This document shows positions 12,686 to 34,079 of a stretch of 64,000 nucleotides of DNA, one piece after another (position 1 is the first letter of the stretch; every line of letters starts with the position of its first letter). Position numbers and translations under genes: made by a program. The notes below the pieces were generated by a model that saw nothing but the letters and a program-made list of their open reading frames with translations, ran no database searches and was not told the DNA's origin. This DNA is from Candidatus Poribacteria bacterium (lineage in GTDB: Bacteria; Poribacteria; WGA-4E; WGA-3G), in contig OZ250160.1 in the NCBI GenBank assembly GCA_965237835.1, positions 128,503 through 192,502 on the forward strand, written 5' to 3'.

Positions 12686-13455
12686 CTTTTTCTCCTACCG
12701 GTAATTGTTAGAAAGGTCATTAAAACTGTGATTGATTCAATTGGATCAGAAACCATTAAAATTAGCATAATCTCAATTAACAAGGGCACCCGATTTTTCG
12801 GGCACCCTGTTTGAATTAATTGGTACACACTCTGTGTAATTCAACCTAATGCCAACCTTAGGCTATTTAGAGAATTGATAAAGGGGTTAGTAACTGCACA
12901 AAATTTTCTATGATAATCTATCATTATGTGTTGTTTTTTGTCAGATTTTCTGTTGGACTAATGATAGAAAAATCTGTCATAATCTGTTGGGTTGAAGTCT
13001 TCCTGCTTCTGTTTTTTGCTAAAGTCCTCATTCCGAGCAATCCTCGTTCAATCAGGTGGAAATGAGATAGCTGCGGAGAACCCCAAGGAAACTTTAGAAT
13101 AAGAGGACACCTCAACCAGTCCTCTGCTTCTACACCAGTTGGAGATTTCATCAGCGGTGTGAAAGGGAGTCACCCGACATGTTTCGCATCTAAAACTTGT
13201 TGTCCATCTAAATCAGCCAGTCGTAAAACCTGATCTGATATTTCTCACAATTGTCTGGTCCCTATTGGTTTGTTCGTTTCAAGAATGAGTATACGGATCT
13301 TATTAAGGTCTTGCTGTGAAAGTTCACCGAGTGCTGGCAACGCGATGGCACAGAATAGGACTGAGAATAGCAAAGCGGTTTCATTGTGTGTCTCCTTAGC
13401 GTATAGTAAACCACATTTGCGCTCGGTTGTCAATAAAAATGTGAAACAGGAATTA

Positions 13456-13602
13456 TTGTCTGAACCAGGATTTCCAGGATTGAAGATTTGTGAATGGCAA
13501 TGTGTCTTTGTAGCGCAAACTAAAAGTTTGTGCTACAGCAGATACGCTTGATGAGAAACAATCCTGAAAATCTCATAATCCTGAAAATCCTGGTTCAGAC
13601 AA
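13456..13602. repeat. Large imperfect palindrome: inverted family-D arms around a REP-like hairpin
   Basis: TTGTCTGAACCAGGATTTCCAGGATT... (13456-) and ...AATCCTGAAAATCCTGGTTCAGACAA (-13602) flank GTAGCGCAAACT-aaa-AGTTTGTGCTAC (13510-13536). Confidence 0.6.
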
Positions 13603-13924
13603 AATAATCCGAGATTCAGACATTAAATCGGGTGCTGCTTCGCTTTACCCACCTACGATACCGTCAAATACCAACAACTTTACACACCCCGGAATAAAGA
13701 AGTACTTGAAAAAATCTAGTTGATTTGATAAGCTGATGTTGTATGAGATGTCCTCCTAATTCTCAATACAAGGAAACTGAAAATTAACCGATTAAATCCC
13801 TAATCTGCAACTCACCTTATTTCGGGCACCAAACTCACGTTATTATACCAAAAGATTCTCCTTCTCTCACACAATACTATTTCTTTCATCAAACTCACGT
13901 CACGCTATAAATAGAGGTTCCTAC

Positions 13925-17244: not shown

Positions 17245-17253
17245 GAGAAGATT

Positions 17254-18690
17254 GAGCGGTTTGAGAAAAACATCAATATATTGGACGTAGAAGCAAATGT
17301 CCTCCCCGATGACGATGAAGACGATGAGGAATTTTTGGTCAATCGTGCCAAAAATCCGTATCATCTGAAGGAATTAGATTGCACCCGTTGGAAGCAAGAC
17401 CTCATCAAAGATAAACAAACCCTAACGGCAGCGTGGGAAAAAGTCAAATCCATCACCCCTGAGAAAGATGGAAAACTCAAAGAGATCAAGAAGCATATTC
17501 GGGACAAGGTGCAAAATTCCACCGCCGATAAAGATGGAAAACCTAACCGCAAACTGTTAGTCTTCACTACCTTCAAAGATACGGCAGTTTACCTTTATGA
17601 TAACTTGTCTGAACTTGCATCGGAATTAGAGTTGAACATGGCGTTGGTTTCTGGAGAGATAACCCGAACAACCTGCGGACAAAATAACTTCAACGCTATA
17701 CTAACGAACTTTGCACCGCGCGCAAGAGGTCGAACTGATGAAACAAGCGACAACATTGATCTAATCATTGCTACCGATTGCATCTCTGAAGGACAAAATC
17801 TGCAGGATTGTGACACAGTCCTCAATTATGATATACACTGGAATCCCGTGCGTATCATTCAACGTTTTGGGCGCATAGACAGGATCGGTAGCAAGAATAA
17901 AGAAGTGAAAATGATAAACTATTGGCCCACTGAAGATATGGAAGTGTATCTGCGTCTACAAACTCGGGTCGCATCGCGCATGGCACTTGCAGATGCAACC
18001 GCAAGCGGTGATGACGACCCGCTAAACGATTTCACTTATGAACAGGCGGAGATGGAACTCAATTTCCGTGACGCACAGTTGGAGCAGCTACGTAAGGAAG
18101 TGCTTGATCTCGACGATCTCTCTGAGGGTGTTGTGTTGAGTGATTTTACGCTCGATTACTTCTTTACACAACTACTGAAATATCTTGAAAAAAATCGTGC
18201 GGAATTGGATGCAACACCTGATGGTGCCTACGCTGTCACGGATTACGAAAATAATCCGAAGGAAAACGGTGTCATCTTCTTCCTACAACAACGTAACGCC
18301 AGCACAGATAAACAGCAGAAATCTGCCAGTCCCATCTATCCATATTATATCGTCTACATCCGCAATAATGGTGACATCCGATACGGGTGTGCAAACGCTA
18401 AACAGGTGTTAGATCTGTTTGAGGCATCGGCTGTCGGAAAGACCGAACCTATTCAGAACTTGTGCCTACAGTTTGACAGAGAAACCGAACACGGTGATAA
18501 TATGGCACATTATAACAAACTATTGGACACGGTGATTACGCATATCACACGGTCGCATACGAAAACACAGAGCCAAATTCTGAGGAGAGGTAGTCCACGC
18601 GATTCTAAACTTACCCCAGCATCCAAAGTACCTAAAGATACTGGTGATTTTAAATTGGTGACGTGGTTGATTATTACGTCTGATGCCTAA
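17254..18690 (+). pseudogene. PLD-SNF2 helicase, 3' fragment (helicase C-terminal domain plus tail)
   Basis: In frame with 13925-15775 once the IS and one target-duplication copy are removed (...LEKI|ERFEKNINILDVEANV...). Motifs LLVFTTFKDTA and ATDCISEGQNLQDCDTVLNYDIHWNPVRIIQRFGRIDRIGS. The reconstructed ORF is 1095 aa. Confidence 0.85.
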
Positions 18691-18697
18691 AAAACAG

Positions 18698-18734
18698 GTT
18701 CGTAGTCGCGCAATTCATTGCGCCTCTTACATTC
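18698..18734. repeat. Solo arm of the long hairpin found at 51187-51261
   Basis: GTTCGTAGTCGCGCAATTCATTGCGCCTCTTACATTC matches the reverse complement of the right arm and loop edge of the 51.2-kb hairpin. Confidence 0.6.
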
Positions 18735-18818
18735 ATAGGACTTTTCAAACTCAATGGAGCCCTATCTTTATTGTAGGGGCAGGTCTCTGGGCCCGCCCGT
18801 GCTTAGGTGAGATGATGC

Positions 18819-18862
18819 CAATCCTGAAAATCCGCAAATCCTGTGAATCCTGGTTCAGACAG
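18819..18862. repeat. Family-D repeat copy (AATCCTGAAAATCC...GGTTCAGACA)
   Basis: CAATCCTGAAAATCCGCAAATCCTGTGAATCCTGGTTCAGACAG lies between the helicase and methyltransferase genes. Confidence 0.6.
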
Positions 18863-18876
18863 AAAGAGGATCAATA

Positions 18877-21800
18877 ATGAACAAAGACACAATCAAATCC
18901 GCATTAACAGCAATTCCCACCAGCGACTTTTTAGAGAAGTCAAAAGAACTCCTCGCAACGATAGGTTACCACAGCGAACGGACCCTTGATCTTTCTGGCA
19001 CCGTCCACGACTTTTTTGAGGAATTTCCACCATTAAACCCGAACACCAAAACCGAACAGGAATTCCGTAATCACGTTGAATCTGTACAACTCATTTTCCA
19101 ATTTACAAAGGACGAAATTGACGATGACCCACAGCAGCTGACTTTGCTTGAGTCTAATTCGTTCGATAAAGGCAACATTAGCAGTTTCCTGTTTTGTGCA
19201 GTGGAATTAAAAGATAGCGACTACTCCCGCACAAAATACGCTGAGTTTACACGAGAAATCAATAAAAGATTGTTTGCCCCAACTGTGATTCTATTTCGCA
19301 CCGCAGACCATCTGACTGTGGCATTTGCAGATCGCTGTCCAGACAAAACTGACGATGCACGTGATGTGCTTGGACAGGTCACCTTCATCAAAGACATCCA
19401 TCTGAACAATCCACATCGCGCACATCTGGATATCCTCTCCGAACTCTCACTTGCAGAATGCGTCAAGTGGATTGATAACAAGAAAAAACCGAAAAACTTC
19501 GACGGGTTGCTGGCAGCATGGCTCGCCAAATTGGATACGGAAGAGCTCAACAAGCAGTTCTATCGGAAACTGTTCGCGTGGTTTGAATGGGCAATTGACG
19601 AAGCAAAGTTCCCAACAGATGAGAAGCGCGTCATAAAACCGGAGGAGCATGTTATCCGACTCATCACACGTCTGCTTTTTATCTGGTTTATCAAAGAAAA
19701 AGGGCTTGTTGCTGAGGAACTATTTAACAAAGCACAAATCCAAAACCTATTGAAAGCGGATGACTTTGATAACGGCGACTCCTACTATCGCGCCGTACTA
19801 CAAAACCTCTTTTTCGCCACGTTAAACACAGAGATAGACAAACGTGAGTTTAGCAGGGAAAACTATTCTGGTAATCGTGATTTCTCACGGTATCGCTACA
19901 AAACACAGATACGCGATCCTGATAAACTGCTGTCATTCTTTGCTAAAACCCCCTTCATCAACGGAGGCTTATTTGATTGTCTGGATAGTTTCAAAGCACC
20001 AACAAGTGGAGGTTACCGAATAGACTGTTTCTCTGATGTTGATTACAAAAAACTGAGCATCCCCAACCGCCTCTTTTTTGACGAAAGCCAAGGACTACTC
20101 CCTACTATACTTGAACACTACAAATTCACCGTTGAGGAGAACACACCGATAGAGCAGGAAGTCGCGCTTGACCCAGAACTACTCGGCAGAGTGTTTGAAC
20201 ACCTACTCGCCGCTATCAACCCAGAAACCGGTGCAACGGTGCGAAAACAGACCGGCTCCTACTACACCCCACGCGCCATCGTTGACTATATGGTAGAGGA
20301 GGCATTAGTCGCGACGCTCTCCCAAAAGTGCAATCCAACCGATGGCAAAGCCGATTTTTGGAACGAACGGTTACACTATCTTTTTGACTATGCAAAGATA
20401 TTCGATGATGCAAGCGAATGGTTTGACGACACCGAAACTGACGCGATCGTGAAAACAATTTCTGAACTCAAAATACTGGATCCCGCGGTCGGTTCTGGCG
20501 CGTTTCCGATGGGAGTGCTGCACAAGTTAACGCTGGCACTGCGGCGACTTGATCCAGACAACAACCGATGGAAAAATTTACAGAAGGAGCTTGCAGGAAA
20601 ACGCGCTGCTGATGCATTTGATACACAGGATGACCAAGAACGTCGTGAAGAACTGCACGAAATTGACGACACATTCAAACGTTACCGTGATTCGGACTTC
20701 GGACGGAAGTTATACCTGATACAAAACAGCATCTTCGGCGTAGATATTCAACCGATCGCCTGTCAAATCGCCAAACTCCGCTTTTTCATCTCACTTGCAA
20801 TTGAGCAGCAGCCAAACGATAATCCTGATAAGAACTTCGGTATCAAACCCTTGCCCAATTTGGAAACGCGCTTTGTTGCAGCGAATACGCTAATCGGTTT
20901 CAAAGCACAAAGGTCGTTCCTAACCGAAAAAGCAGTGAAGTTAGAGCACGAACTGCAAGACAATCGTGAACAGCATTTCCACGCTACTACTCGCCAACGC
21001 AAACGCGCCTGCCAGACAAAAGATGAAATATTGCGCGGAGAATTGGCAACCGAATTAAAAAGCCTGGGGATGCTTGCAGATGATGCTGAAAAGGTTGCCA
21101 AATGGGATTTGTATGACCAGAACGCCACTGCTGATTGGTTCGATTCGGAATGGATGTTTGGGATTACGCATGGATATGATGTGGTGATTGGCAACCCGCC
21201 TTATATCCAATTGCAAAAGGATGGCGGGAGACTTGGAAATCTTTATCAAAATGCGGGTTTTGATAACTTCGCTCGCACAGGCGATATTTACTGTCTATTT
21301 TATGAACGCGGAATCAAACTGCTAACACGAAACGGGCATCTTTGTTATATTACCAGCAATAAATGGATGCGCGCAGGTTATGGCAAAAAGTTGAGAGATT
21401 ATTTTGTAACTTATACCCAACCCGTTCAACTACTGGATATGGGACCCGATGTGTTTGATGCCACCGTAGACACAAACATTCTGCTGCTACAAAACACCGT
21501 GCTAGATGATCCAATTGACTTCAAAGCCGTAACCATTGGGGCAGATTTTGACAAACAAACCGGTAGCATCGGACAATACTTGAGCGATAACGGTGGGACT
21601 ATGGAAAAACCTGCTAAAGGTGAACCGTGGGCAATACTCTCATCTGCCGAACTCGCCTTAAAACGCAAAATAGAAAATGTCGGCAAACCGCTCAAAGACT
21701 GGAACATCTCTATTCATTACGGAATTAAAACAGGTTATAACACTGCCTTTCTCATTGATAATCAAACGAAAGAGGCACTGATAGAAGCAGATCCCAAATC

Positions 21801-22458
21801 GGATGAAATTATCAAGCCCGTTTTGAAAGGTCGGGACATCAAGCGATATCAAGTTGATTGGGCAGGATTATGGTTGATAGATACACATAACGGATATGAA
21901 AATGTTCCAGCAATTGATGTAAACAATTACCCAATCGTTAAAAGACACTTAGATGGCTTTCACACCCAACTTGAAAAGCGCAGCGACAAGGGACACACAC
22001 CCTATAATCTCCGGCATTGTGCTTACCATTCAGCATTTGAAAAAGCGAAAATTATTTATCCTGAAACAACCCACACCGCTAACTTTTTCTACGATGACGG
22101 GCAATATTTTATAGAGAAAACCTGTTTTATGATAACGGGTAGTGATTTAAAATTGTTAGTTGGACTACTGAGTTCCATTCTAATGACATTTGCTTACAAG
22201 CAATATTGTAGCGGTACTGTACTTGGTAAAAAGGGATACCAATACAACCAACATGCCTTAGAGAAATTGCCCATCGTTAAGATTCCCGCAGCGCAACAAG
22301 CATCTTTCATTGCTTTAGTTGATAAAATCCTTTCCATGAAAGCCGCAGACCCAGATGCAGACACCACAGACTTGGAAAATGAGATTGACCAATTGGTATA
22401 CGCCTTATACGACTTAACCCCCGAAGAAATTGCGATTGTAGAGGGTGCTGCGGGATAA
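18877..22458 (+). CDS. Eco57I/PglX-like gamma-class N6-adenine DNA methyltransferase with a TaqI-like C-terminal specificity domain
   Basis: 1193 aa with GSYYTPRAIVDYMV, ILDPAVGSGAFPMGVL (motif I), VVIGNPPYIQLQ (motif IV) and a C-terminal GIKTGYNTAFLID region. The tail is LENEIDQLVYALYDLTPEEIAIVEG. Confidence 0.85.
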   Translation: MNKDTIKSALTAIPTSDFLEKSKELLATIGYHSERTLDLSGTVHDFFEEFPPLNPNTKTEQEFRNHVESVQLIFQFTKDEIDDDPQQLTLLESNSFDKGNISSFLFCAVELKDSDYSRTKYAEFTREINKRLFAPTVILFRTADHLTVAFADRCPDKTDDARDVLGQVTFIKDIHLNNPHRAHLDILSELSLAECVKWIDNKKKPKNFDGLLAAWLAKLDTEELNKQFYRKLFAWFEWAIDEAKFPTDEKRVIKPEEHVIRLITRLLFIWFIKEKGLVAEELFNKAQIQNLLKADDFDNGDSYYRAVLQNLFFATLNTEIDKREFSRENYSGNRDFSRYRYKTQIRDPDKLLSFFAKTPFINGGLFDCLDSFKAPTSGGYRIDCFSDVDYKKLSIPNRLFFDESQGLLPTILEHYKFTVEENTPIEQEVALDPELLGRVFEHLLAAINPETGATVRKQTGSYYTPRAIVDYMVEEALVATLSQKCNPTDGKADFWNERLHYLFDYAKIFDDASEWFDDTETDAIVKTISELKILDPAVGSGAFPMGVLHKLTLALRRLDPDNNRWKNLQKELAGKRAADAFDTQDDQERREELHEIDDTFKRYRDSDFGRKLYLIQNSIFGVDIQPIACQIAKLRFFISLAIEQQPNDNPDKNFGIKPLPNLETRFVAANTLIGFKAQRSFLTEKAVKLEHELQDNREQHFHATTRQRKRACQTKDEILRGELATELKSLGMLADDAEKVAKWDLYDQNATADWFDSEWMFGITHGYDVVIGNPPYIQLQKDGGRLGNLYQNAGFDNFARTGDIYCLFYERGIKLLTRNGHLCYITSNKWMRAGYGKKLRDYFVTYTQPVQLLDMGPDVFDATVDTNILLLQNTVLDDPIDFKAVTIGADFDKQTGSIGQYLSDNGGTMEKPAKGEPWAILSSAELALKRKIENVGKPLKDWNISIHYGIKTGYNTAFLIDNQTKEALIEADPKSDEIIKPVLKGRDIKRYQVDWAGLWLIDTHNGYENVPAIDVNNYPIVKRHLDGFHTQLEKRSDKGHTPYNLRHCAYHSAFEKAKIIYPETTHTANFFYDDGQYFIEKTCFMITGSDLKLLVGLLSSILMTFAYKQYCSGTVLGKKGYQYNQHALEKLPIVKIPAAQQASFIALVDKILSMKAADPDADTTDLENEIDQLVYALYDLTPEEIAIVEGAAG

Positions 22459-22491: not shown

Positions 22492-22608
22492 GAGGAAAAA
22501 GTTAAGAAAACCCCATAAATTCTGTTTTTAGGCAGTTTATCATTGGCACGAAAATTGCTCGTTAGGTAACCTATATGTTCTTCTAAAATCTGACCGGGAA
22601 GTTGGTAA

Positions 22609-23526
22609 GTGATGGAAATGATTAACAGATTTCGTGGAGAAGCAGGTCGTAATCGCCTTATTTGGGCGTTACGCAAACAGGCTATTCTGCATGACGACGA
22701 AACATTATCCAATGAACTAGCTGACCAAGCCGAACTTCTTCAGTTTGAGTCCGGGGATGAACTAATCATACAGCATGATGCTGACAATGACATCTATTTT
22801 ATTTTAGCTGGGCAACTTTCTATCGTTGTTAATGGACGAGAAGTAGCTATCAGGAAACCTGGAGAACATGTCGGTGAAATGGTGTTAATTGATCCATCTG
22901 CAAGACGTTCAGCGTCGGTTATTGCTATTGAGCAAACGGTTGTTGTCAAAATTTGTGAAACCTCTTTCCGTTTGTTAGCAGAAAAATATCCAAGAATCTG
23001 GCAGCTAATTGCAGTAGAACTTGCCGATAGGTTGCGGCAAAGAAATAGGTTAGTTGCTGCTACAAACCCACGTCCTGTTGTGTTCATAGGTTCCTCAAAG
23101 GAATCACTTCCTATTGCAGAGACGATTAAATCTAATTTAGATGGTAAAGATATCATCGTTCACTTATGGACAGAAGGTGTTTTTGGTGCTTCGCAATTTA
23201 CATTAACCGAACTTGAGAAACAGGTTCAAGAAGCTGACTTTGCAGTACTTGTTCTGGGACCTGACGATGAAGTGATAAGTCGTGACGAAAAATCGGATGC
23301 GCCTCGTGATAATGTAATCTTTGAGTTAGGTCTATTTATGGGAGCATTATCACATGAACGAACCTTTATGGTTATTCCTCACGGGTGTGATATTAAGATT
23401 CCCACTGATTTGCTTGGCCTTATTCCCTTGAAGTATAAATCAGGTGATTCTAACGACTATGCCGATTTGCTGATACCAGTTTGTGATCAACTTCGGCATA
23501 ACATTAAAAAGGTCAACGTTAAATAA
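22609..23526 (+). CDS. pycTIR: Pycsar-type effector: cyclic-nucleotide-binding domain fused to a TIR-like (Cap12/PF10137-type) domain
   Basis: cNMP-binding signature GEHVGEMVLID...RRSASVIA. The TIR-like part is VVFIGSSKESLPIAE...ADFAVLVLGPDDEV...PRDNVIFELGLFMGAL...IPTDLLGL. The start is GTG 22609 or ATG 22612. Confidence 0.75.
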   Translation: MMEMINRFRGEAGRNRLIWALRKQAILHDDETLSNELADQAELLQFESGDELIIQHDADNDIYFILAGQLSIVVNGREVAIRKPGEHVGEMVLIDPSARRSASVIAIEQTVVVKICETSFRLLAEKYPRIWQLIAVELADRLRQRNRLVAATNPRPVVFIGSSKESLPIAETIKSNLDGKDIIVHLWTEGVFGASQFTLTELEKQVQEADFAVLVLGPDDEVISRDEKSDAPRDNVIFELGLFMGALSHERTFMVIPHGCDIKIPTDLLGLIPLKYKSGDSNDYADLLIPVCDQLRHNIKKVNVK

Positions 23527-23550
23527 TTTCATATTAGGAGGATTATTCCA

Positions 23551-24243
23551 ATGAGTTTAGGTGAAGATTTTGCAAAAGAAGTTCGAAAAATATTTCAGGA
23601 AACATGGGCTACCCGGAAAGGCAGAAAAGTCCCAGAACCGGGAGATATAGCATTAGGTAATGATGCTGTGGAGTTAGACGGGACGGTGCTATATGCAGAC
23701 CTTGATGATTCTACAAATCTTGTAGATTCTCATCAACCAAAATTTGCGGCTAAAATATATAAAGCATATCTCAGCTGCGCTGCTAAGGTGATACGGTCTG
23801 AGGGTGGTGTTATCACCTCTTACGATGGCGATCGTATCATGGCGGTATTCATCGGAGACTTAAAAAACACCTCCGCCGCTCGTTCAGCATTAAAAATAAA
23901 CTATACAGTTACCAAAATTATAAATCCTGTTCTAAAAAAGTATTCTCCCAAAACGAATTACAAAGTCAAGCAAGTTGTGGGTATTGACACCAGCAAATTA
24001 TTTGTCGCACGCACTGGAATACGAAATTCGAACGACCTCGTTTGGGTTGGACGTGCTGCGAACTACGCAGCGAAATTGTGTTCTCTTTCACCCAATTACC
24101 CTTCACGACTGACCAAAGGCGTGTACGATAAATTGGATGACTCAGTTAAGTATGCGAATAATGATAAAAGAACGCCTATGTGGAATAAGGCCACATGGAA
24201 TGATATGACGATTTATAGATCAACTTGGCGATGGCCAATATAG
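23551..24243 (+). CDS. pycC: Small class III nucleotidyl cyclase (Pycsar PycC-like)
   Basis: 230 aa with metal-binding VLYADLDDST, GDRIMAVF and VWVGRAANYAAKL. It has a TAGGAGG RBS and starts 24 nt after the effector gene. Confidence 0.7.
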   Translation: MSLGEDFAKEVRKIFQETWATRKGRKVPEPGDIALGNDAVELDGTVLYADLDDSTNLVDSHQPKFAAKIYKAYLSCAAKVIRSEGGVITSYDGDRIMAVFIGDLKNTSAARSALKINYTVTKIINPVLKKYSPKTNYKVKQVVGIDTSKLFVARTGIRNSNDLVWVGRAANYAAKLCSLSPNYPSRLTKGVYDKLDDSVKYANNDKRTPMWNKATWNDMTIYRSTWRWPI

Positions 24244-24443
24244 GAGCGCATAAAATATCATTGACTTATTGGAATGATTGAAAATGGTCTGAATAGCAAA
24301 TAATAGGTAATGTAGATTTTCAATTGAGAAGTCTATGTAATCCCCGATTCAGATAATAAAGAGATTGCGAATATGATGTATCTTATCAGTTTGATACAGA
24401 GCGAGCCATAATGTGAATGCCGTGCTTTTGATATTGCCGTTCC

Positions 24444-24502
24444 TAATCCTGAAAATCCGATAATCCTGAAAATCCTGGTTCAGACAATCCGCGATTCAGA
24501 CA
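24444..24502. repeat. Family-D repeat copy (junction 1)
   Basis: CCTAATCCTGAAAATCCGATAATCCTGAAAATCCTGGTTCAGACAATCCGCGATTCAGACA. Confidence 0.6.
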
Positions 24503-24522
24503 AAAGAAACCGTCATTATAGA

Positions 24523-24660
24523 GAACAAATCCTGAACACACAAACGCAACCCCTTGCCCAAAATGCGTAAACCGATGCAAAGGTTTTTCCTTGAAAATCA
24601 GATTGATAGTATGGTATACTGCTGATACAAATTAACCTTGAAGAAATTCAAGTGTGGGGA
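24523..24660 (+). pseudogene. Degenerate remnant of a methyltransferase 3' end (ghost 1)
   Basis: 24590-24654 reads LENQIDSMVYC*YKLTLKKF, against LENEIDQLVYALYDLTPEEI at the end of 18877-22458. That is 10 of 21 positions by eye, with an in-frame stop. Confidence 0.45.
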
Positions 24661-24745
24661 AAGCACAGAATAAATTTCTGAATCGTGGATTAGATAAAGT
24701 GCTCAGATTTTTGGATTGTGTCATCCGTGAAAAGGAGTGCCAAAA

Positions 24746-25951
24746 ATGCAAAAATACGACGTTGCGTTGTCATTTGCTGCGGAAGACCGTCAGTATGCCA
24801 AAACGTTAGCAAATCTTCTCAAAGCAGATGGATATGAACCCTTTTACGATGAAAATGAGTTAGCAAATCTATGGGGGAAGAATCTATATGACTACTTGTC
24901 GTCGGTTTATAAAGATCAAGCTCGCTATTGTGTGATGTTCCTTTCTAAACACTACGAACGAAAACTATGGACGACCCATGAACGCCAACTTGCGCAAGCA
25001 AGGGCATTTCAGGAAAACCGTGAGTATATTCTCCCAGTTCGTCTCGACGATACAGAAATTCCGGGTATTCCTCCCACGGTCGGATATCTTGATTTACGTT
25101 CAATGACTATTGAAGAAGTCTATGAGGCTTTAGTAAAGAAGTTATCGGGCACCACATTGCAAACAAACACTGATTTCACGAACGCCGCCGTAGTTGAGGA
25201 AGATTCTACCGAGTATGTGCTATTAAATTCTGAAGATGGGAAACTGTATTTCTTTCCGGTTCAAAACGCGCGTTGGGATTCAACAGAAATTTCACTTGAG
25301 CTGCTGCCAGAATCGCCAGAAGATACAGCTTTTCTTCGTTCATTAAGAAGTCATATCAGTGAGGTATTTGCAAGAGATATCTTCATTGCACTTGCGCTTG
25401 GAGAAGATGCTGCGTGGGTAACCCCAAAGGAAGTCGTTCAAACGGCGTCCGGTTCACAAATCGTTTGGAAAGTCGTTCTGAACGTAGAAAGACACAGAAA
25501 AAATGGAAACCCCCTTGGCGAAATAACGTTTGGTAGTTTTTCACCGGATAAGATTGCTGAAATGCGGGCAAAGCGGATCCTACTTAATGAGAAATTAGGC
25601 GAACTTCCACAGGATTTCCAGAACCAAACAGGGCCCGCGGGTTTGTTCAACGAAGTTTCATTGGAAGTGTTTGTTCGTGGCAGCAACGGATTTCAAATCT
25701 CTGCATCAACCATCCCGTTCCTATACCGCTCTATTGGACGAACAGTTGGACGTTTTGAGAAATTCGCACGTTTAATCTCGGTACTTCACCTTAAACTCTC
25801 AAATACAGTTGAAGAGATACTCAAATTAGATTTGAAACTTCTGAATCCTGAACAGGTAGAGATCAAATTCAAAGGGCGTAGGTCCAAGCGGTACGTTAAC
25901 GTTGAACCGTCTATTATTGAATTTGATGGAATCTGCCCACTAACTGAGTGA
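24746..25951 (+). CDS. TIR-domain protein with an uncharacterised C-terminal domain of about 260 aa
   Basis: MQKYDVALSFAAEDRQYAKTLANLLKADGYEPFYDENE...YCVMFLSKHYERKLWTTHERQ...ILPVRLDD is a bacterial TIR. I prefer ATG 24746 (AAGGAG 7 nt upstream) over the track's GTG at 24737. Confidence 0.75.
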   Translation: MQKYDVALSFAAEDRQYAKTLANLLKADGYEPFYDENELANLWGKNLYDYLSSVYKDQARYCVMFLSKHYERKLWTTHERQLAQARAFQENREYILPVRLDDTEIPGIPPTVGYLDLRSMTIEEVYEALVKKLSGTTLQTNTDFTNAAVVEEDSTEYVLLNSEDGKLYFFPVQNARWDSTEISLELLPESPEDTAFLRSLRSHISEVFARDIFIALALGEDAAWVTPKEVVQTASGSQIVWKVVLNVERHRKNGNPLGEITFGSFSPDKIAEMRAKRILLNEKLGELPQDFQNQTGPAGLFNEVSLEVFVRGSNGFQISASTIPFLYRSIGRTVGRFEKFARLISVLHLKLSNTVEEILKLDLKLLNPEQVEIKFKGRRSKRYVNVEPSIIEFDGICPLTE

Positions 25952-26091
25952 TTATATCCTTCATACATAGCAACAGAAAGCGACGTTGTTTTAGAGAGAC
26001 TTCTATCTAACCAACGTAATCAGTTTTATCCTTAATTGAAACAACACCCACTTCACTTGGATTAATTATCATTTTGGAAAATAAAGCAGTC

Positions 26092-27327
26092 ATGAGTGTT
26101 GAGACCCTAAGCGAGTTTATAGAATGGGCGGCAAAATTTAGCGATGGACAATACCTATTTCGTGGGGTTTCAACAGAAAGTTACAAAATAGAGGCATCTG
26201 CTTACCGTCGCTTGCCTGAAACCGACACAAATAATACGAGTAAGCTGCTTAAAATCAATCAAGAGTTGATAGAAAAAGCAAGAGGACTTGGACACGATCA
26301 GAAAGACGGTCAACAGTTATCCGATCTGGAACTACTTGCAGAACTTCAGCATTTTGGTGCAGCCACCTGCCTAATAGATTTTTCACGGAGTGCGTTGGTA
26401 GCATTGTGGTTTGCTTGCCAGCAAGGCTCCAAAGTAGAAGCAAACGGCAAAGTTTTCGCTGTCCGTCATGACGATATGGTCCGCCTAAAGACAGTTAATC
26501 CAAAATTGATCAAAAAAGAGATTGATTATTTTTTCAAACCGGATGAAAATGGTAGATTTCCGCTATATCAATGGCAACCGAAACTTCAGAACAACCGTAT
26601 CATAGCTCAACAATCTGTTTTCGTATTCAGTGGTGCCTCAATTGAAGCAGAGGATGAATGTGTCATTAAGAGAAACAGCAAGCAAGACATCCTAATATCT
26701 CTGGATAATATATCAGGTATCAACGAAGCTAATATTTATCCTGATTTTGACGGGTTTGCTCGATTACATGCCTACAACAAAACATACGTTGAACCGGATG
26801 CTCAAGACTATCTGCAACGTGGAATTGAAGCTCAACAAAATGGCAACCTTGATGATGCTATTGAGTACTACACTGAAGTCATACGGTTGGATCCGGCAGA
26901 CACTTCCACAATTTCAGTGGCTCGTTACAGTCGTGGCGTCGCTTACATCGAAAAGGGAGAGGCAGACCTCGCCATTGAGGATTATAACATCGTAATTCAA
27001 TACGATCCAAATTATGCTCATGCATATAACAGTCGAGGTTATGCGTACAGGAGAAAAGGAGATAATGAGCATGCTGTTAAAGACTATGACGAAGCAATAC
27101 AGATTAATCCGAATAATGTTCTGTTTTATAACAATCGCAGCATAGCACTATTACAGCAGCAAGAGTGGGAAAGGGCAAAATCAGACTTGACAACTGCCAA
27201 GAACATGGGAGTAGATATCATAACGTTATTTCGTAACTCATATTCAAGCATTGCCGACTTTGAGCAGAAACATAATGTGAAACTACCACCAGACATCACC
27301 GCAATGCTAACACCCCCACGGGCATAG
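26092..27327 (+). CDS. FRG-domain / TPR-repeat fusion protein
   Basis: FRG-domain motifs: YLFRGVS, LAELQHFGAATCLIDFSRSALVALWFAC and NRIIAQQSVFVF. The C-terminal half has about 4 TPR units (AIEYYTEVIRLDP, AIEDYNIVIQYDPNYAHAYNSRG...). The start is either ATG 26092 or TTG 26074. Confidence 0.7.
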   Translation: MSVETLSEFIEWAAKFSDGQYLFRGVSTESYKIEASAYRRLPETDTNNTSKLLKINQELIEKARGLGHDQKDGQQLSDLELLAELQHFGAATCLIDFSRSALVALWFACQQGSKVEANGKVFAVRHDDMVRLKTVNPKLIKKEIDYFFKPDENGRFPLYQWQPKLQNNRIIAQQSVFVFSGASIEAEDECVIKRNSKQDILISLDNISGINEANIYPDFDGFARLHAYNKTYVEPDAQDYLQRGIEAQQNGNLDDAIEYYTEVIRLDPADTSTISVARYSRGVAYIEKGEADLAIEDYNIVIQYDPNYAHAYNSRGYAYRRKGDNEHAVKDYDEAIQINPNNVLFYNNRSIALLQQQEWERAKSDLTTAKNMGVDIITLFRNSYSSIADFEQKHNVKLPPDITAMLTPPRA

Positions 27328-27378: not shown

Positions 27379-27424
27379 CAATCCGCGTCATCTAAGTAAT
27401 CCGTGCAAATCCGAGATTCAGACA
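27379..27424. repeat. Family-D repeat copy (junction 2)
   Basis: CAATCCGCGTCATCTAAGTAATCCGTGCAAATCCGAGATTCAGACA. Confidence 0.55.
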
Positions 27425-27569
27425 ACAAATTCTGAACACACAACACAAACCTTTGTCCTAAACATACAGCCAGATACCGAAGTTTTCACTTGAAAATGAA
27501 ATTGATCGTTTGGTATACTCATTGTACAACATAAACCCCGAAAAAATTGCAATTATGGAAACGGAATGA
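27425..27569 (+). pseudogene. Remnant of a methyltransferase 3' end (ghost 2, best preserved)
   Basis: 27489-27569 is an open 26-codon frame plus stop, LENEIDRLVYSLYNINPEKIAIMETE*. It matches 17 of 25 positions of LENEIDQLVYALYDLTPEEIAIVEG. Its TGA overlaps the ATG of the next gene (ATGA at 27566-27569). Confidence 0.7.
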
Positions 27570-28309
27570 ATACACCAAACGACTCGGAGGCTCAAAAGAG
27601 TCTAAGCGAGGTATTTGAAAAAATCCAAGAAATAGCGGCAAACTCAGCGTATGGCGACTTCATTTATCGCGGTGAGCCTGAACATTTTGAAGGAGAACCA
27701 TACTATGGAAAGGTTTCTTCAAGTCTTTGGCGTAAGTGTCGGAAAGAAATTGGATCGGAGGAATTTGAGGTAGAAGTCATCCAAGATCAGATATTGAAAA
27801 TAGCTAAAGACTATACTCACGAAGAAGACGAGTTTGAGATTTTGACAGAACTTCAACATTACGAGGGGCATACCAATCTTATAGATTTTACAACTGATTG
27901 CCACATAGCCCTGTTTTTCGCATGTGACGGTTCCCTTGGAAAACCCGGCAGGATTATCTTATTAGAAGGAACTGAAGAGATAAAAGATTATATCAAACCA
28001 CCTCGGAATCCTCAAAATCGCATCATAGCGCAAAAAAGTATATTCGTTCGGCCTCCGAAAGGCTTTATCGAACCAGAACAGTTCGCAGAAGTCAACATTC
28101 CCGAATTGCTCAAGGGACCGATGTTGGATCATCTGCAAAAACAGCACGGTATCTCAACTCAAACAGTCTACAACGATCTCCATGGGTATATTAGAAACCA
28201 GGACACCCACCTGAAGGAAGGCATAGAAGTTTACAATGACGAAATGCAGCAGGGGGAAGATGACTTTCAGCTTGAATCGTCTCAACTCAGTAAGGAAAAG
28301 GAGACATAA
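27566..28309 (+). CDS. FRG-domain protein (stand-alone)
   Basis: 247 aa with FIYRGEP, LTELQHYEGHTNLIDFTTDCHIALFFAC and NRIIAQKSIFV. Confidence 0.7.
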   Translation: MNTPNDSEAQKSLSEVFEKIQEIAANSAYGDFIYRGEPEHFEGEPYYGKVSSSLWRKCRKEIGSEEFEVEVIQDQILKIAKDYTHEEDEFEILTELQHYEGHTNLIDFTTDCHIALFFACDGSLGKPGRIILLEGTEEIKDYIKPPRNPQNRIIAQKSIFVRPPKGFIEPEQFAEVNIPELLKGPMLDHLQKQHGISTQTVYNDLHGYIRNQDTHLKEGIEVYNDEMQQGEDDFQLESSQLSKEKET

Positions 28310-28312
28310 AAC

Positions 28313-29116
28313 ATGCAGACACAACCAGAACAGACACCTTACGATATCACCATTGAACGCTTTACCAAAGCAATTGATCGGAGACCCACTTTTGCCCAAG
28401 GTTATAACTATCGAGGTCTCGCTTATGGTAATAAAGGCGAAATTGACCGTGCAATAGAAGACTTTAACACGGCAATTAGACGTAAGGAAAACTATGCCGA
28501 AGCATACAGTAATCGCGGGGCAGCTTACCGCATAAAAGGTGACTATGATCGCGCATTTGAAGATTGTAACATCGCGATAAGACTTGACCCAAATTTGCCA
28601 GAAGCATATAACAATCGAGGGATAGTTTATAAACTCAAAGGTGAGATAGAATTGGCTATTCAAAACTATGACACAGCAATAAAACTTGATCCAAGTTTTG
28701 CTTATGCCTATAATAATCGTGGTATTATTTACTATGAAAGAGAAGATTATGATCTCGCAATCATAGATTATACCAAAGCAATAGAACTGAGACCGGACCT
28801 TGTCCGTCCCTATAACAATCGTGGTAATGTTTACAGTAAAAAAGGCGAGTATGAACGTGCCATCAGAGACTATGACGCGGCGATAGAACGTAACACCGAT
28901 TTAGCAGAGCCATACTACAATCGCGGTATGGCATTTATACGCTTGCAAAAATGGGAAAAAGCCAAAGAAGATTTGACAACTGCCAAAGACAAGCAGGAAA
29001 ATATCATCATTGAACAGTTTCGCAAAGACTATGAAAACATTGCCGACTTTGAACAGAAACATAGTGTTAAACTGCCAGAAGACATCGCCGCAATGCTAAC
29101 TCCCTTGCAGGCATAG
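28313..29116 (+). CDS. TPR-repeat protein (stand-alone partner of 27566-28309)
   Basis: 267 aa with about 6 tandem TPR units (AIEDFNTAIRRKENYAEAYSNRG...). It starts 3 nt after the FRG gene. The last ~45 aa are nearly the same as the C-terminus of 26092-27327. Confidence 0.75.
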   Translation: MQTQPEQTPYDITIERFTKAIDRRPTFAQGYNYRGLAYGNKGEIDRAIEDFNTAIRRKENYAEAYSNRGAAYRIKGDYDRAFEDCNIAIRLDPNLPEAYNNRGIVYKLKGEIELAIQNYDTAIKLDPSFAYAYNNRGIIYYEREDYDLAIIDYTKAIELRPDLVRPYNNRGNVYSKKGEYERAIRDYDAAIERNTDLAEPYYNRGMAFIRLQKWEKAKEDLTTAKDKQENIIIEQFRKDYENIADFEQKHSVKLPEDIAAMLTPLQA

Positions 29117-29167
29117 CAGTAAAACAAGAAACTGTCTTCTCATCAGATTACCTGATACTATAGATTT

Positions 29168-29205
29168 TCAATCCGCGTCATCCGCAATAATCCGCGATTC
29201 AGACA
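29168..29205. repeat. Family-D repeat copy (junction 3)
   Basis: TCAATCCGCGTCATCCGCAATAATCCGCGATTCAGACA. The following AAAGAAACCGCCATTGTAGAACACAAATCCTGA is nearly identical to junction 1. Confidence 0.55.
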
Positions 29206-29226
29206 AAAGAAACCGCCATTGTAGAA

Positions 29227-29375
29227 CACAAATCCTGAGCATACAAATCCAGTGTGCCAAACGCGTACCCCCATACCAACGTTCCAACGCCCCTAAAAAT
29301 GATATTGACAAATTCACCTATAAAGTGTACAGTTTAACAAGCGAACATTCAGAATTGCAAAACGTGGTGAAGGAG
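29227..29375 (+). pseudogene. Degenerate remnant of a methyltransferase 3' end (ghost 3)
   Basis: 29293-29375 reads LKNDIDKFTYKVYSLTSEHSELQNVVKE, against LENEIDQLVYALYDLTPEEIAIVE. That is 9 of 19 positions by eye, collinear and ungapped. Confidence 0.45.
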
Positions 29376-29384
29376 GACATATCC

Positions 29385-29786
29385 ATGAATGGCACCGAAA
29401 AAGTAATAAAGCACTTGGAAATGACACAAAATGTTATTAACCGTTTGGGGCGAAACAGTTTCTTGCTAAAAAGTTGGAGCATGACAATTCTTGTTGCAGC
29501 AATGGTTTTAATCGCCAAAGAAGATTTGCAAAATTCATATTTTGTCTTAGTCCTTTTCCTTCCTATTGCAGGATTTTGGATTTTGGATGGTTACTTTCTC
29601 TGGCAGGAACGGTTGTTCCGAAAGGTCTATGATGAGATCAGAGAGCAAACCGACACCAATTTCAAGATGGATCTCGGTAAGCACAAACCGAAATGTAGTT
29701 GGATATCTGCTATTTTTTCGATCACGCTAAATATTTTTTATTTTATAGAGGTACTGTTTGTGTTCGCAATTGGTTATTTTTCTTAG
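29385..29786 (+). CDS. Small 3-TM membrane protein, hypothetical
   Basis: ATG 29385 follows GAAGGAGGA. 133 aa with three hydrophobic helices. The track ORF from 29325 is an in-frame extension through ghost 3. Confidence 0.5.
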   Translation: MNGTEKVIKHLEMTQNVINRLGRNSFLLKSWSMTILVAAMVLIAKEDLQNSYFVLVLFLPIAGFWILDGYFLWQERLFRKVYDEIREQTDTNFKMDLGKHKPKCSWISAIFSITLNIFYFIEVLFVFAIGYFS

Positions 29787-31203: not shown

Positions 31204-32478
31204 ATGGCAATGGATTATTATATCAGTCTATTTGGTGACGATTCAAACTCAGGTATTTCCCAAAAGCAACCGTGGCAAAGTATTGACAGCGTAAATGCTA
31301 TCCGATTACAACCTGGAGATTCCGTGTGGTTTCACGCAAATCAAACCTTCAAGGGAAATCTCACGCTTTCTGATACAGATACAGATGCCTCAGACAAACC
31401 GATAACGTTCAGTTCATACGGAGATGGTAGAGCAACGATTGATGCTAGCATCGGTCATGGTTTCTTCATCCAAAATCGTGGAGGTGTGCAGATAACTAAT
31501 CTCAACTTCGTTGGCACAGGAGCAGATCAGAATACCAGTTCAGGGATATGGTTCGTCAATACACTGCCGGAACACAAAAAACTGACGCATATACGCATTG
31601 ATAAGGTTAACGTTAGCGGTTTTAAACATGCTGGAATTTGCATCGCCGCGCAGCCAATTGATGGTGGATGGTGTGGGTTCAGCGATGTGAAAATAACACA
31701 CGCCAACGTCCATGATAACGGAGATGCAGGAATAAATTGTTTTGGCGCGTGGAATCCAGAGGACGAGGAATATGCACATGCTAACATCTATGTCGGCAAC
31801 TGCCGTGCATATAGAAACGCAGGCATTCCCGGCAAAGAAAGCCATTCGGGGAACGGTATTATCCTTGCACAAGTAGATGGTGCCACAATTGAGCATTGTG
31901 AGACTTATGAAAACGGGAGGTTGAACGATCACGAAGGCGGTGGTCCCGTTGGTATCTGGACGTGGGATTCAAATCGTGTTGTCATTCAGTTCAATGAATC
32001 ACATCACAACCGAACAGGAAGCAGTAAAGATGGTGGAGGGTTTGATTTAGATGGCGGTGTACGGAACGCAATTGTGCAGTATAATTATTCGCACGATAAC
32101 GATGGAGCAGGTTATCTGTTAGCGCAATTTGAAGGCGCAAAAGCATTTCATGGTAACGTTATCCGCTATAATCTCAGTGAGAATGATGGACGAAGAAACA
32201 GTTTTGGTGGTATTCACCTCTGGTCTACTGGTGCGAATGGCGGTATCAGAAACACAACTATCTATCAGAATACAGTCTTAACGTCCAAATCTGCCACTGG
32301 TAATCCTGCTGCAGTTGACTGTCCGAGTGATGGAATTAGCAACATCCGCTTCTACAATAATACCTTTAAAACCGATGGCGACGCAGTGCTAATTCGGGGA
32401 GAAGATAATCCAGAGGTCATTTTTGAAGGCAACGTTTGCTTGATTGATGACGAGGATTTTGATAAGGAGAAAAAATGA
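31204..32478 (+). CDS. Right-handed parallel beta-helix repeat protein
   Basis: 424 aa with repetitive N/G-rich turns (HDNGDAGIN, ENGRLNDHEGGGP, HDNDGAGY) typical of pectate-lyase-fold proteins. Confidence 0.6.
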   Translation: MAMDYYISLFGDDSNSGISQKQPWQSIDSVNAIRLQPGDSVWFHANQTFKGNLTLSDTDTDASDKPITFSSYGDGRATIDASIGHGFFIQNRGGVQITNLNFVGTGADQNTSSGIWFVNTLPEHKKLTHIRIDKVNVSGFKHAGICIAAQPIDGGWCGFSDVKITHANVHDNGDAGINCFGAWNPEDEEYAHANIYVGNCRAYRNAGIPGKESHSGNGIILAQVDGATIEHCETYENGRLNDHEGGGPVGIWTWDSNRVVIQFNESHHNRTGSSKDGGGFDLDGGVRNAIVQYNYSHDNDGAGYLLAQFEGAKAFHGNVIRYNLSENDGRRNSFGGIHLWSTGANGGIRNTTIYQNTVLTSKSATGNPAAVDCPSDGISNIRFYNNTFKTDGDAVLIRGEDNPEVIFEGNVCLIDDEDFDKEKK

Positions 32479-34079
32479 GGCGTTTTGGAACTCAAGGTCG
32501 CGTGTATCCTGACCGACACTATGTTGTACCACGCACCGAAGAAATTGCTGACTTCATCACCCGTGTCAAAGACGGTCGCTATATCGTACTCTTTGCACCG
32601 CGCCAAACCGGCAAGACCACCTTCTTCCGATTGGCACTTGATACCCTTGCCGCCGAAGATCCAACCTATTTCCCTATTCAATTGAATTTTGAGGAATATG
32701 AAGACTGTACTCTTTCGGAATTTTATGACTCCCTTAAGAAAGAAATTTGCAAAGAAATTGAACGCGTGTTCCTAAAACACGGAGAAGTCCTCTCTGATAC
32801 GCTTAACGACTTCTTAGAAACTGCAGAGATTACCAACCATCTGTCAATGAGGGAATTTTTTGAGCAACTGATGAGTTTTCTGTGCTTTCCGATGAATTGT
32901 CAGAAGATTGTCCTAATTATTGACGAGTTTGACGCTATTCCTCAGGCAGCCGTTCGTGGTTTTCTGCATTCGCTTCGTTATATCTATCTCTCTGACGCAT
33001 TGCGATGCCCACATAGTGTTGGCATCGTCGGCGTAAAAAGCATCGCCCAACTCAACTATGATCGTTCTATTTCGCCATTTAATATCCAAGATGAGTTTCG
33101 GTTGCCTAACTTTACGTTAAAACAAGTGCAGGAACTACTATCGCAATATACAGACGAAGTAGGTCAAGACTTCGCACCAGAGGTGATCGCATCTATCCAT
33201 AAGCAGACTGCAGGTCAACCTGTGCTTGTGAACCGTTTCGCGCAAATTCTGACTGAGGAGATGGATATTCCCAAAACCGAAACCATTACCCCTATACATT
33301 TTTCAACGGCACATACGCAGCTCCTTCGAGGACGAAACACTAATATCCAGCATCTAACAACTAATATCCGTAGAGACCCGCGCTTTGAAAGTATGTTGAT
33401 GAGAATCATGGCGCGTGAGGAAGGCGTGGACTTCAATCTGGATGATGAAGTCATCAGTGAACTCGCTACGTACGGTGTTATCCGAGAAGCCCCTGACGGT
33501 ATGTGTGAGATTGTTAATCCAATTTATCTCTACCGTATCATGAGGACTTTCAAACCGACAATAAATGGATTAGAAGACGATTATTTCTCTGAAGATGCCG
33601 ATACATGTTTTTTGGATTACCTCACATCTACAGGACAGATTGATATGGTCCCCATACTTGATAACTTTCGTGACTTTATCGCTCGCGTCGGTTTCCGTAT
33701 CTTGCAAGTTACAGATACACCGCAGGAGTATATTGGACAGCATCTACTATATGCCTATCTTGAGCAGTTTGTCCGCAGCGTGGGTGGGAATATTTACCTT
33801 GAAGTGCAAACGGGGCGAGGCAGAATGGATCTCCTCCTCATCCACAACCAGCGAAAATACATCGTTGAAACCAAGATTTGGGAAGGAAACAGTCGCTATG
33901 TAGCGGGAAAAAAGCAGCTTGCAGTGTATATGGAATTGGAAGGAACTGTGGAAGGCTACTATGTTGTATTTGATCATCGCCACAGTCCAGAACCGCGAGT
34001 AGAGACTGAGACAGTGGATGGTGTGACAATTCGGAGTTATGTTATTCCTGTGATGCAAGCACGGCCTTCATCAGTTTAG
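32475..34079 (+). CDS. AAA-ATPase-like protein with a C-terminal PD-(D/E)XK nuclease domain
   Basis: Walker A FAPRQTGKTT and Walker B LIIDEFD. The C-terminal GRMDLLLIHNQRKYIVETKIW gives D...E-x-K. It overlaps the upstream gene in ATGA. Confidence 0.65.
   Translation: MRRFGTQGRVYPDRHYVVPRTEEIADFITRVKDGRYIVLFAPRQTGKTTFFRLALDTLAAEDPTYFPIQLNFEEYEDCTLSEFYDSLKKEICKEIERVFLKHGEVLSDTLNDFLETAEITNHLSMREFFEQLMSFLCFPMNCQKIVLIIDEFDAIPQAAVRGFLHSLRYIYLSDALRCPHSVGIVGVKSIAQLNYDRSISPFNIQDEFRLPNFTLKQVQELLSQYTDEVGQDFAPEVIASIHKQTAGQPVLVNRFAQILTEEMDIPKTETITPIHFSTAHTQLLRGRNTNIQHLTTNIRRDPRFESMLMRIMAREEGVDFNLDDEVISELATYGVIREAPDGMCEIVNPIYLYRIMRTFKPTINGLEDDYFSEDADTCFLDYLTSTGQIDMVPILDNFRDFIARVGFRILQVTDTPQEYIGQHLLYAYLEQFVRSVGGNIYLEVQTGRGRMDLLLIHNQRKYIVETKIWEGNSRYVAGKKQLAVYMELEGTVEGYYVVFDHRHSPEPRVETETVDGVTIRSYVIPVMQARPSSV

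Follow-up and report, generated by a model that had tools for sequence, protein, structure and literature searches.

Defence islands cluster around restriction-modification genes. To our knowledge, the entry of new defence systems into such islands without an integrase, and their expression, are mostly unexplained. Poribacteria are sponge symbionts, and the DNA analysed here (the window; 64,000 nt) comes from a 5.9-Mb Candidatus Poribacteria contig. In its defence island, the 3' end of a gene for an Eco57I/TaqI_C-family DNA-methyltransferase (MT) recurs as short relics, which are referred to as ghosts. We consider it reasonably probable, on sequence comparisons, that ghost 2, which runs into a gene with an FRG domain, has been exapted as the promoter and leader of the FRG and TPR genes and marks the boundary of a defence cassette.

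The locus combines variants of two known phenomena, internal promoters and the 3'-end duplications seen at insertion hotspots. A gene can carry, near its 3' end, an internal promoter whose -35 and -10 elements lie within coding sequence and which drives the next gene, an arrangement also predicted for intact MTs considered here; at the ghosts the host gene is gone, and the putative promoter stub has been copied to the heads of several cassettes and is conserved across genomes. Islands at the 3' ends of tRNA, tmRNA or protein genes (attL/attR) are comparable in that direct repeats of the 3' end flank the insert, and in that successive insertions, as in tandem arrays, leave a row of ghosts with a displaced copy beside the original downstream gene. 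They differ in that no integrase was found in this island (Pfam); moreover, the lengths of the duplicates vary from 70 to 300 nt, which makes a fixed att core unlikely. With integron arrays the island shares ordered small defence cassettes, a repeated junction element and a content that differs between close relatives. Unlike those of integrons, its cassettes appear to bring their own promoter instead of depending on Pc, and the junction is derived from a methylase gene. No recombinase, IntI included, was found by Pfam among the ORFs of at least 140 aa between 13.9 and 34 kb.

Gene pairs coupled through an ATGA sequence have a 4-nt stop/start overlap and a GGAG in the last codons of the upstream gene, both of which recur here, but the upstream partner at this locus is a 26-codon stub without a start, and the predicted transcript starts inside that stub. 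The MT resembles both the PglX enzymes of BREX and the Type IIG Eco57I-like enzymes, in that it contains the Eco57I and TaqI_C domains and the C-terminal tail LExEIDxxVYxLYxLTxxEIxIVE. Its best PADLOC models are, however, those of Type IIG (E value 1e-134), the PglX models being far weaker (E value 6e-20). PglZ-like and BrxC-like ORFs are absent among the annotated ORFs between 13.9 and 34 kb, where the MT neighbours an HKD-SNF2 helicase and defence cassettes. The locus is not BREX.

In the literature, the FRG domain is assigned to the ART superfamily ('Frg' clade) and predicted to be an NADase effector (PMC9503650). The FRG defence candidates already described (PDC-S15; PMC9503650) resemble the present gene in domain and in defence-island setting, whereas here the FRG gene carries an MT-derived leader and is almost always fused to a TPR gene or paired with one, which follows within 120 nt in 70 of the 78 related loci. 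The literature on the FRG domain in defence and the ART superfamily, and on Poribacteria and restriction-modification, was found to contain general statements; MT-derived promoters or the junction repeats described below were not found in it.

Organization of the defence island

The island spans 13.9–29.8 kb of the window, and its genes and ghosts, apart from a transposase gene, lie on the plus strand. In order, it comprises an HKD(PLD)-SNF2 helicase gene split by an insertion sequence (IS), the MT, a Pycsar pair, ghost 1, a TIR_2 gene, an FRG-TPR fusion gene, ghost 2, the FRG gene (PDC-S15), the TPR gene, ghost 3, and a gene for a 133-aa PDC-M50A-like membrane protein. The first gene beyond the island without a defence annotation encodes an aminotransferase. 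The HKD(PLD)-SNF2 helicase/nuclease gene (13925–18690) is the partner of the MT. The IS within it is of the UPF0236/ISLre2 type (15777–17244; transposase at 15803–17122 on the minus strand) and divides the gene into 13925–15802 and 17281–18690; about 10 nt at the IS junction align to both flanks. The gene is uninterrupted in the closest relative of this locus, designated L001. The restriction arm is probably inactive in the present genome, while the MT (1193 aa; 18877–22458; Eco57I and TaqI_C domains, PADLOC REase_MTase_IIG) is intact. Between the two genes, a 66-nt unit with the palindrome GCGCAATTCATTGCGC is single-copy at 18683–18749. At the same place in L001 this unit forms a 14.9-copy tandem array (L001 2238–3226); its core recurs 8 kb further downstream in an array of period 82 (L001 15500–15828). 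The 64-aa ORF listed at 18683–18877 is probably spurious.

The first slot behind the MT holds the Pycsar pair (22609–24243), i.e., a 305-aa cNMP-binding TIR effector and a 230-aa cyclase (PADLOC E values 1e-117 and 4e-99, respectively). The same pair occurs in L028 with 73% aa identity, while in L001 the slot is occupied by a ThsB-like TIR gene. Ghost 1 (24587–24660) contains an in-frame stop and is followed by an inverted AATCC repeat (24675–24691), and then by the two-gene cassette (24746–27327) composed of TIR_2 (24746–25951) and the FRG-TPR fusion (417 aa; 26074–27327), which is missing from L001.

The FRG gene (27566–28309; 247 aa), for which the public gene call uses the same start, 27566, matches both PF08867 (Pfam, E value 2e-11) and PADLOC PDC-S15 (E value 5e-20). 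Its AlphaFold model, made from a 30-sequence alignment, has a pLDDT of 38, and a sequence search for PDB relatives gave none below an E value of 0.18. The TPR gene (28313–29116; 267 aa) begins 3 nt after the FRG stop. The FRG-TPR fusion is a diverged paralogue of this split pair (27566–29116). Both have the C-terminal peptide ...DFEQKH.VKLP.DI.AMLTP..., and they also share about 35–70 nt past the stop codon with 76% nt identity; thus, the 3' ends of the cassettes are repeated as well.

Ghost 3 (about 29290–29345; degenerate NDIDKFTYKVYSLTSE) is located upstream of the PDC-M50A-like membrane protein gene (29385–29786; 133 aa; PADLOC PDC-M50A). The start of this gene is the ATG at 29385, behind an AAGGAGG Shine-Dalgarno sequence, and not the GTG at 29325. 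The mechanically listed ORF 29325–29786 takes this GTG, which lies within ghost 3, as its start and opens with relic-derived codons (VYSLTSE). In many relatives a PDC-M50A-like gene lies about 25 nt after the TPR gene, an arrangement that suggests a trio of FRG, TPR and membrane protein. FRG with TPR, often directly followed by such a membrane protein gene, is a very common cassette of the Poribacteria. Just outside the island, 32475–34079 encodes a 534-aa AAA_35/AAA_16 ATPase with a weak NERD-like match at its C-terminus.

Ghost 2 is a relic of a methyltransferase gene

Ghost 2 (27489–27569, plus strand) is the relic of the last 26 or so MT codons together with the stop, and its TGA overlaps the ATG of the FRG gene. 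Direct reading of this segment confirmed the uninterrupted frame of 26 codons and TGA that a sequence-only reading of the DNA had reported, with the translation LENEIDRLVYSLYNINPEKIAIMETE followed by the stop. The frame stays open back to 27462, and there is no start codon at its head. The resident MT ends in LENEIDQLVYALYDLTPEEIAIVEGAAG, and the part of it that is homologous to the ghosts is its 3' end, 22372–22445. In a search of the whole window in six frames, ghost 2 has 71% identity with the MT C-terminus over 24 aa (tblastn, E value 2e-5); at the nucleotide level the identity is 81% over 68 nt (blastn). Ghost 2 was also recovered with a protein HMM built from MT C-termini (E value 1.9e-12) and with a nucleotide HMM (E value 2.6e-16), and its tail, LENEIDRLVYSLYNINPEKIAIME, conforms to the tail motif of the MTs given above. 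The N6-MTase core and the TaqI_C specificity domain are lacking, about 26–35 codons being left. Upstream there is repeat DNA, and then the stop of the FRG-TPR fusion gene. Orthologous copies are present in at least 12 genomes. Ghost 2 is a relic of an MT gene and not itself a gene, and its MT origin, as already proposed from the sequence alone for an Eco57I-family 3' end, is close to certain.

The VYSLYN variant of ghost 2 is slightly nearer to the MTs of L067, L055 and L058 than to the resident MT, at 72% versus 71% aa identity, a gap that is too small for the assignment of a donor. Independent truncations of MT genes were considered for the three ghosts of the window and rejected, since the ghosts are arranged alike and have some 110 nt of junction sequence upstream of them in common.

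Promoter-like sites in the ghosts and in intact methyltransferases

A consensus scan places a predicted sigma-70-type promoter at 27490–27519 of the plus strand, 46–47 nt upstream of the FRG ATG. It includes a -35 hexamer TTGAAA (27490–27495), an 18-nt spacer with TG at 27511–27512, and a -10 hexamer TATACT (27514–27519). The whole site, TTGAAA-N18-TGgTATACT, has 10 of 12 consensus positions and an extended -10; this scoring assumes the sigma-70 consensus, and the promoter rules of Poribacteria may differ. Equivalent sites are found in ghost 1 (24591–24620) and ghost 3 (29305–29333; TTGACA-N17-TACAGT). Ghost 2 therefore has what is expected of a sigma-70 site, namely the hexamers, a spacing within 16–18 nt, and a position conserved relative to the gene.

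Conservation within ghost 2 is confined to these elements. In 12 orthologues, which are related sequences from one ghost lineage, all 14 promoter positions are invariant, as compared with 9 of the remaining 70 columns of the ghost (Fisher P 2.6e-10). Averaged over all pairs, identity amounts to 1.00 in the promoter columns, 0.61 in the rest of the ghost, and 0.42 in the 18 columns upstream. The ghost core starts at the same position in orthologous loci, although the FRG proteins are only 60–80% identical. Across independently derived ghosts, some conservation of the hexamers could be inherited from the MT, because the promoter positions coincide with its most conserved residues (LEN, VY); the comparison of the 12 orthologues, being made within one lineage, addresses this objection.

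Sites with at least 10 of 12 consensus positions occur within 160 nt upstream of the start in 30 of 79 FRG loci; shuffles give 2 on average and never more than 7. Their distance to the start codon is fixed, 42–47 nt in class 1, to which the window belongs, and 36–38 nt in class 2. The class 2 site, TTGACA-N17-TATGAT/TATAAT, which is a perfect 12/12 match in three cases, corresponds to another register of the same relic, in which EID(K) gives rise to TTGACA and LY(N/D)L to TATGAT or TATAAT. Each register has drifted toward the consensus while the other register decays, which is hard to explain except by selection of the hexamers for promoter activity.

Intact MTs contain such sites too. Of 19 full-length MTs, which are related to one another, 13 reach a score of 10/12 or better within their final 33 codons, versus 3.1 predicted when synonymous codons are resampled with each gene's own usage, and only 7 such sites occur in the remaining 66 kb or so of the 19 genes. 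The resident MT and that of L001 are without a good site in the 3' end. In L061 (Binatia) and L068 (Latescibacterota), the ghosts are GC-rich and keep the stop/start overlap, with no obvious hexamers. The IVEG codons (ATTGTGGAGG) place a GGAG about 8–10 nt before the overlapped start; the Shine-Dalgarno sequence of ghost 2 itself is weak (GGAAACGGA).

The overall number of promoter-like sites between 22.3 and 29.4 kb is not significantly enriched (24 versus 17 ± 4), so that the argument stands on position and conservation rather than on counts. In the window, these sites are about 4-fold denser in intergenic than in coding DNA, a difference confounded by A+T richness. A structured RNA leader was considered and rejected: RNAalifold found 0 conserved pairs in the 12 orthologous ghosts, the single-sequence fold has a z of -1.9, and Rfam gave no match anywhere in the window.

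The stop/start overlap

The ATGA at 27566–27569, in which the TGA of ghost 2 is joined to the FRG ATG, was likewise confirmed by direct reading. Alone it is weak evidence, as it is largely a consequence of the second FRG codon. As the second codon of FRG is one for Asn or Ser, 64 of the 78 FRG starts read NTGA. In the aligned 3' ends, intact MTs read ...ATTGTGGAGGGGAGTGTC TGA ATC... and a ghost with its FRG gene reads ...ATTGTGGAGAACAGTGTT TGA ACA..., and in both promoter classes the stop codon of the ghost aligns with that of intact MTs. The FRG start that overlaps this MT-derived stop is ATG in the class of the window and TTG in the class of the aligned example. The exact 4-nt overlap between ghost frame and FRG start is found in the window and 10 further loci from three phyla (L001, L004, L015, L021, L023, L025, L034, L036, L061 of the Binatia, and L068 of the Latescibacterota). 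Since the ghost stop is the MT stop and is overlapped by the FRG start, we infer that an MT was ancestrally joined to FRG by overlapping stop and start codons, a view that we regard as credible and soundly based. An intact MT overlapping FRG by 4 nt was found in none of 94 loci (80 from genomes and 14 from the metagenome scan). The sequence-only reading had placed an MT directly before FRG in the donor; the alignment of the stops and the linkage described below speak for this, and the missing intact counterpart speaks against it.

Only 3 of the 12 orthologous ghosts are free of stops in this frame. The other 9 contain stops or indels that are not multiples of three, and the ghost of the closest relative, L001, has a 1-nt insertion. 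Judging from these orthologues, the open frame is not under selection. Nor is the overlap a working coupling signal today, since a credible start is missing from the ghost frame and transcription is predicted to begin within the ghost; any coupling was ancestral at best. The view of the ATGA as a signature of translational coupling could therefore not be upheld, as the overlap geometry is present but a translated upstream ORF, with a start, a ribosome-binding site and a conserved frame, is not.

Linkage of methyltransferase and FRG genes

The comparison employed 80 genome loci encoding FRG relatives (50–81% identity) and the 14 loci from the metagenome scan. Linkage was counted in the 74 FRG loci whose upstream sequence covers 3 kb or more, as an MT on the same strand within 8 kb. 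A full MT is found upstream of FRG in 23 of the 74 and a partial MT in 7. A further 20 have an MT relic without an MT, with the ghost next to FRG in 16 and further upstream in 4. The remaining 24 have no MT trace by HMM or tblastn, and several of these keep the class 2 promoter-like site. The linkage spans Poribacteria, Binatia, Latescibacterota, Nitrospirales, and Chloroflexota (sponge metagenomes). The recurrent MT-FRG adjacency that the sequence-only reading had proposed to look for is thus present, as an MT in 30 of 74 loci and as a relic in 20. The loci can be arranged as a decay series. In L052 and L069 an MT, intact in the former, is followed by FRG after 178 nt and about 150 nt, respectively; L047 keeps a 345-aa MT remnant just upstream of FRG; and the ghosts of L017 and L062 lie in open segments of 84 and 61 aa, of which about 45–60 aa are MT-like. 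In L073 (Caldilineaceae) a displaced duplicate of the 3' end of its own MT lies 27 nt before FRG.

The overlap had been taken as fossil evidence for an MT-FRG-TPR unit with FRG/TPR as the non-methylase partner. No support for such a partnership was found: the MT has its own HKD-SNF2 partner, FRG matches the single-gene candidate PDC-S15, copies of the relic also stand before the TIR and PDC-M50A cassettes, and the content of the slot between MT and FRG varies even between close relatives. Island growth and a shared expression platform explain the adjacency better than a methylase-effector unit does, and the relic is no evidence that FRG/TPR needs the MT.

Cassette boundaries and junction repeats

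A common junction module, made up of AATCC-type repeats (AATCCGNGATTCAGACA, AAATCCTGAACACACAA), stands before every ghost, and the three modules of the window are paralogous over about 170 nt. Upstream of ghost 2 they are located at 27396–27446 on the plus strand (AATCCGAGATTCAGACA, AAATTCTGAACACACAA), where they coincide with breakpoints of intergenome homology. Within the window these repeats are confined to the defence island (13449–13622, 18820–18861, 24339–24544, 24675–24691, 27396–27446, and 29158–29247). In most of the 80 related loci, members of the family (AATCCNNNNTTCAGACA, AATCCTGAAAATCC, AAATCCTGAACACACAA) mark the junctions between cassettes, and in many intact MTs the stop codon is overlapped by a copy on the minus strand (GTC TGA ATC GCG GATT). 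Their possible roles include that of an operator or a recombination site, and they might also be remnants of a MITE.

L001 shares the island, with 91% aa identity for the MT, 93% for TPR and 97% for the aminotransferase. Homology with the window extends through the MT and 123 nt beyond, after which the Pycsar segment (22582–24338) is replaced by the ThsB-like TIR gene. The segment 24459–27396, with ghost 1, TIR and the FRG-TPR fusion, is absent from L001, the breakpoints being in AATCC repeats, and homology restarts just before ghost 2. Other homology blocks begin at the 5' edges of ghosts, at window positions 27483 and 29297 for L012 and at 24584 for L028, while those of L021 and L084 stop at the junction repeat, at 27424. 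Within single genomes, inserted cassettes lie between young copies of the MT 3' end. In L073, a duplicate of 173 nt (93.6% identity) surrounds a 1.5-kb DUF2188+TIR insert, and similar duplicates are found in L062 (130 nt at 90%) and L036 (150 nt at 85%). From these cases we infer that cassettes probably enter behind the MT and duplicate its 3' end as they do so.

Proposed origin of ghost 2

In the proposed history, ghost 2 would be what survives of the 3' end of an Eco57I-family MT gene, which was formerly joined to FRG directly, its stop codon overlapping the FRG start. In these sponge-symbiont genomes, the last 80 nt or so of the MT gene would double as an expression platform for the gene downstream. 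The codons for LEN...VY(S/L), or for EID(K)...LY(N/D)L in another MT subfamily, would spell a sigma-70-type -35/-10 pair that may fire as a promoter in Poribacteria, and the IVEG codons a Shine-Dalgarno sequence. Such a platform would account for the length of the minimal ghosts, which are all about 80 nt long, and for the onset of conservation just upstream of the -35. Insertion of a cassette behind the MT would duplicate the MT 3' end, possibly by single-crossover insertion of a circle with an MT segment or by homology-facilitated illegitimate recombination, or the MT might be lost in some other way. The displaced copy would stay with the gene that it formerly served. Selection would then keep the piece needed for transcription and translation of FRG-TPR while the reading frame decays. 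Today, ghost 2 would thus serve the FRG-TPR operon as its promoter and 5' leader, and would mark the 5' boundary of a modular cassette.

The strongest competitor is that ghosts persist mainly as recombination substrates, i.e., as portable MT 3' ends kept similar by gene conversion. The duplicates that flank inserted cassettes within genomes, the block boundaries at ghosts and AATCC repeats in L001 and elsewhere, and the paralogous junction modules are all in keeping with this. However, outside the hexamers old ghosts have no more than about 61% identity with one another, they are 79–81% identical to the resident MT over 68 nt, and being so short and diverged they are unfit for efficient homologous recombination. 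Conservation is, moreover, limited to the two hexamers and the TG and is not spread along the repeat. Recombination may well explain the origin of ghosts, but not the persistence of minimal ones, and as a full account we judge it unlikely. Somewhat less probable again is the model with which the analysis began, a neutral fossil of an MT-FRG-TPR unit with FRG/TPR as a coupled effector partner. It would account for the recurrent linkage, for the overlap homologous to the MT stop in the window and 10 loci, and for the stepwise decay seen in L052, L047, L017, L062 and L073, from an intact MT down to a minimal ghost. Under neutrality, 14 of 14 invariant promoter positions would be unexpected in a relic that is otherwise at 61% identity with broken frames. 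The existing HKD-SNF2 partner of the MT, the stand-alone status of FRG as candidate PDC-S15, the 24 of 74 loci without MT trace, several of which carry a class 2 site, the TIR and PDC-M50A cassettes headed by the same relic, the interchangeable cassettes between MT and FRG, and the lack of any intact overlapping MT among the 94 loci weigh against it as well.

Two further readings fare much worse. A short ORF within ghost 2 (ATG GAA ACG GAA TGA, 27555–27569) might be translated and couple ribosomes onto FRG. The window and L001 do have this in-frame ATG four codons ahead of the overlap, but most orthologues read GTGAAAAAGAATGA and have neither the mini-ORF nor an in-frame start, which leaves it very improbable. 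A chance or convergent likeness between the MT and an unrelated leader would be favoured by the shortness and A+T richness of the match. It is opposed by the E values of both profiles, by longer remnants, graded up to 345 aa, in the same position, and by the 94%-identical MT 3'-end duplicate of L073; such a coincidence would be extraordinary, and this reading is effectively refuted already. The sequence-only reading had allowed that the 81-nt frame might belong to an unrelated conserved leader. A conserved leader it is, but one that is MT-derived and hence not unrelated.

Starting from exaptation of the MT 3' end as promoter and leader, a wider proposal can be made, which we put forward as speculative and rather doubtful. 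In sponge-symbiont genomes, the last 80–300 nt or so of Eco57I-family MT genes might be a selected portable module of promoter and Shine-Dalgarno sequence that is duplicated with each cassette insertion, so that islands are built in an integron-like manner without a recombinase. Were this true, each cassette would inherit its own promoter and a patch of homology, and together with the AATCC repeats this would provide for shuffling of islands beside restriction-modification genes in at least four phyla of one habitat. The picture would be one in which every further cassette obtains its promoter, its ribosome-binding site and possibly a stretch of homology from the MT 3' end, and in which the order of insertion can be read from the remaining stubs.

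Consequences for annotation

A short open frame that looks protein-coding and ends in an ATGA overlap need not be a signal of coding or coupling, as it can also be the fossil of a promoter. Automated gene calling may join such a relic to the downstream gene. In L001 (7896–8720), the 1-nt insertion in the ghost fuses it in frame to FRG and gives a 274-aa ORF starting MYSQIPKFSLENELDRLVY, which is likely an annotation artefact with a spurious N-terminal extension derived from the relic.
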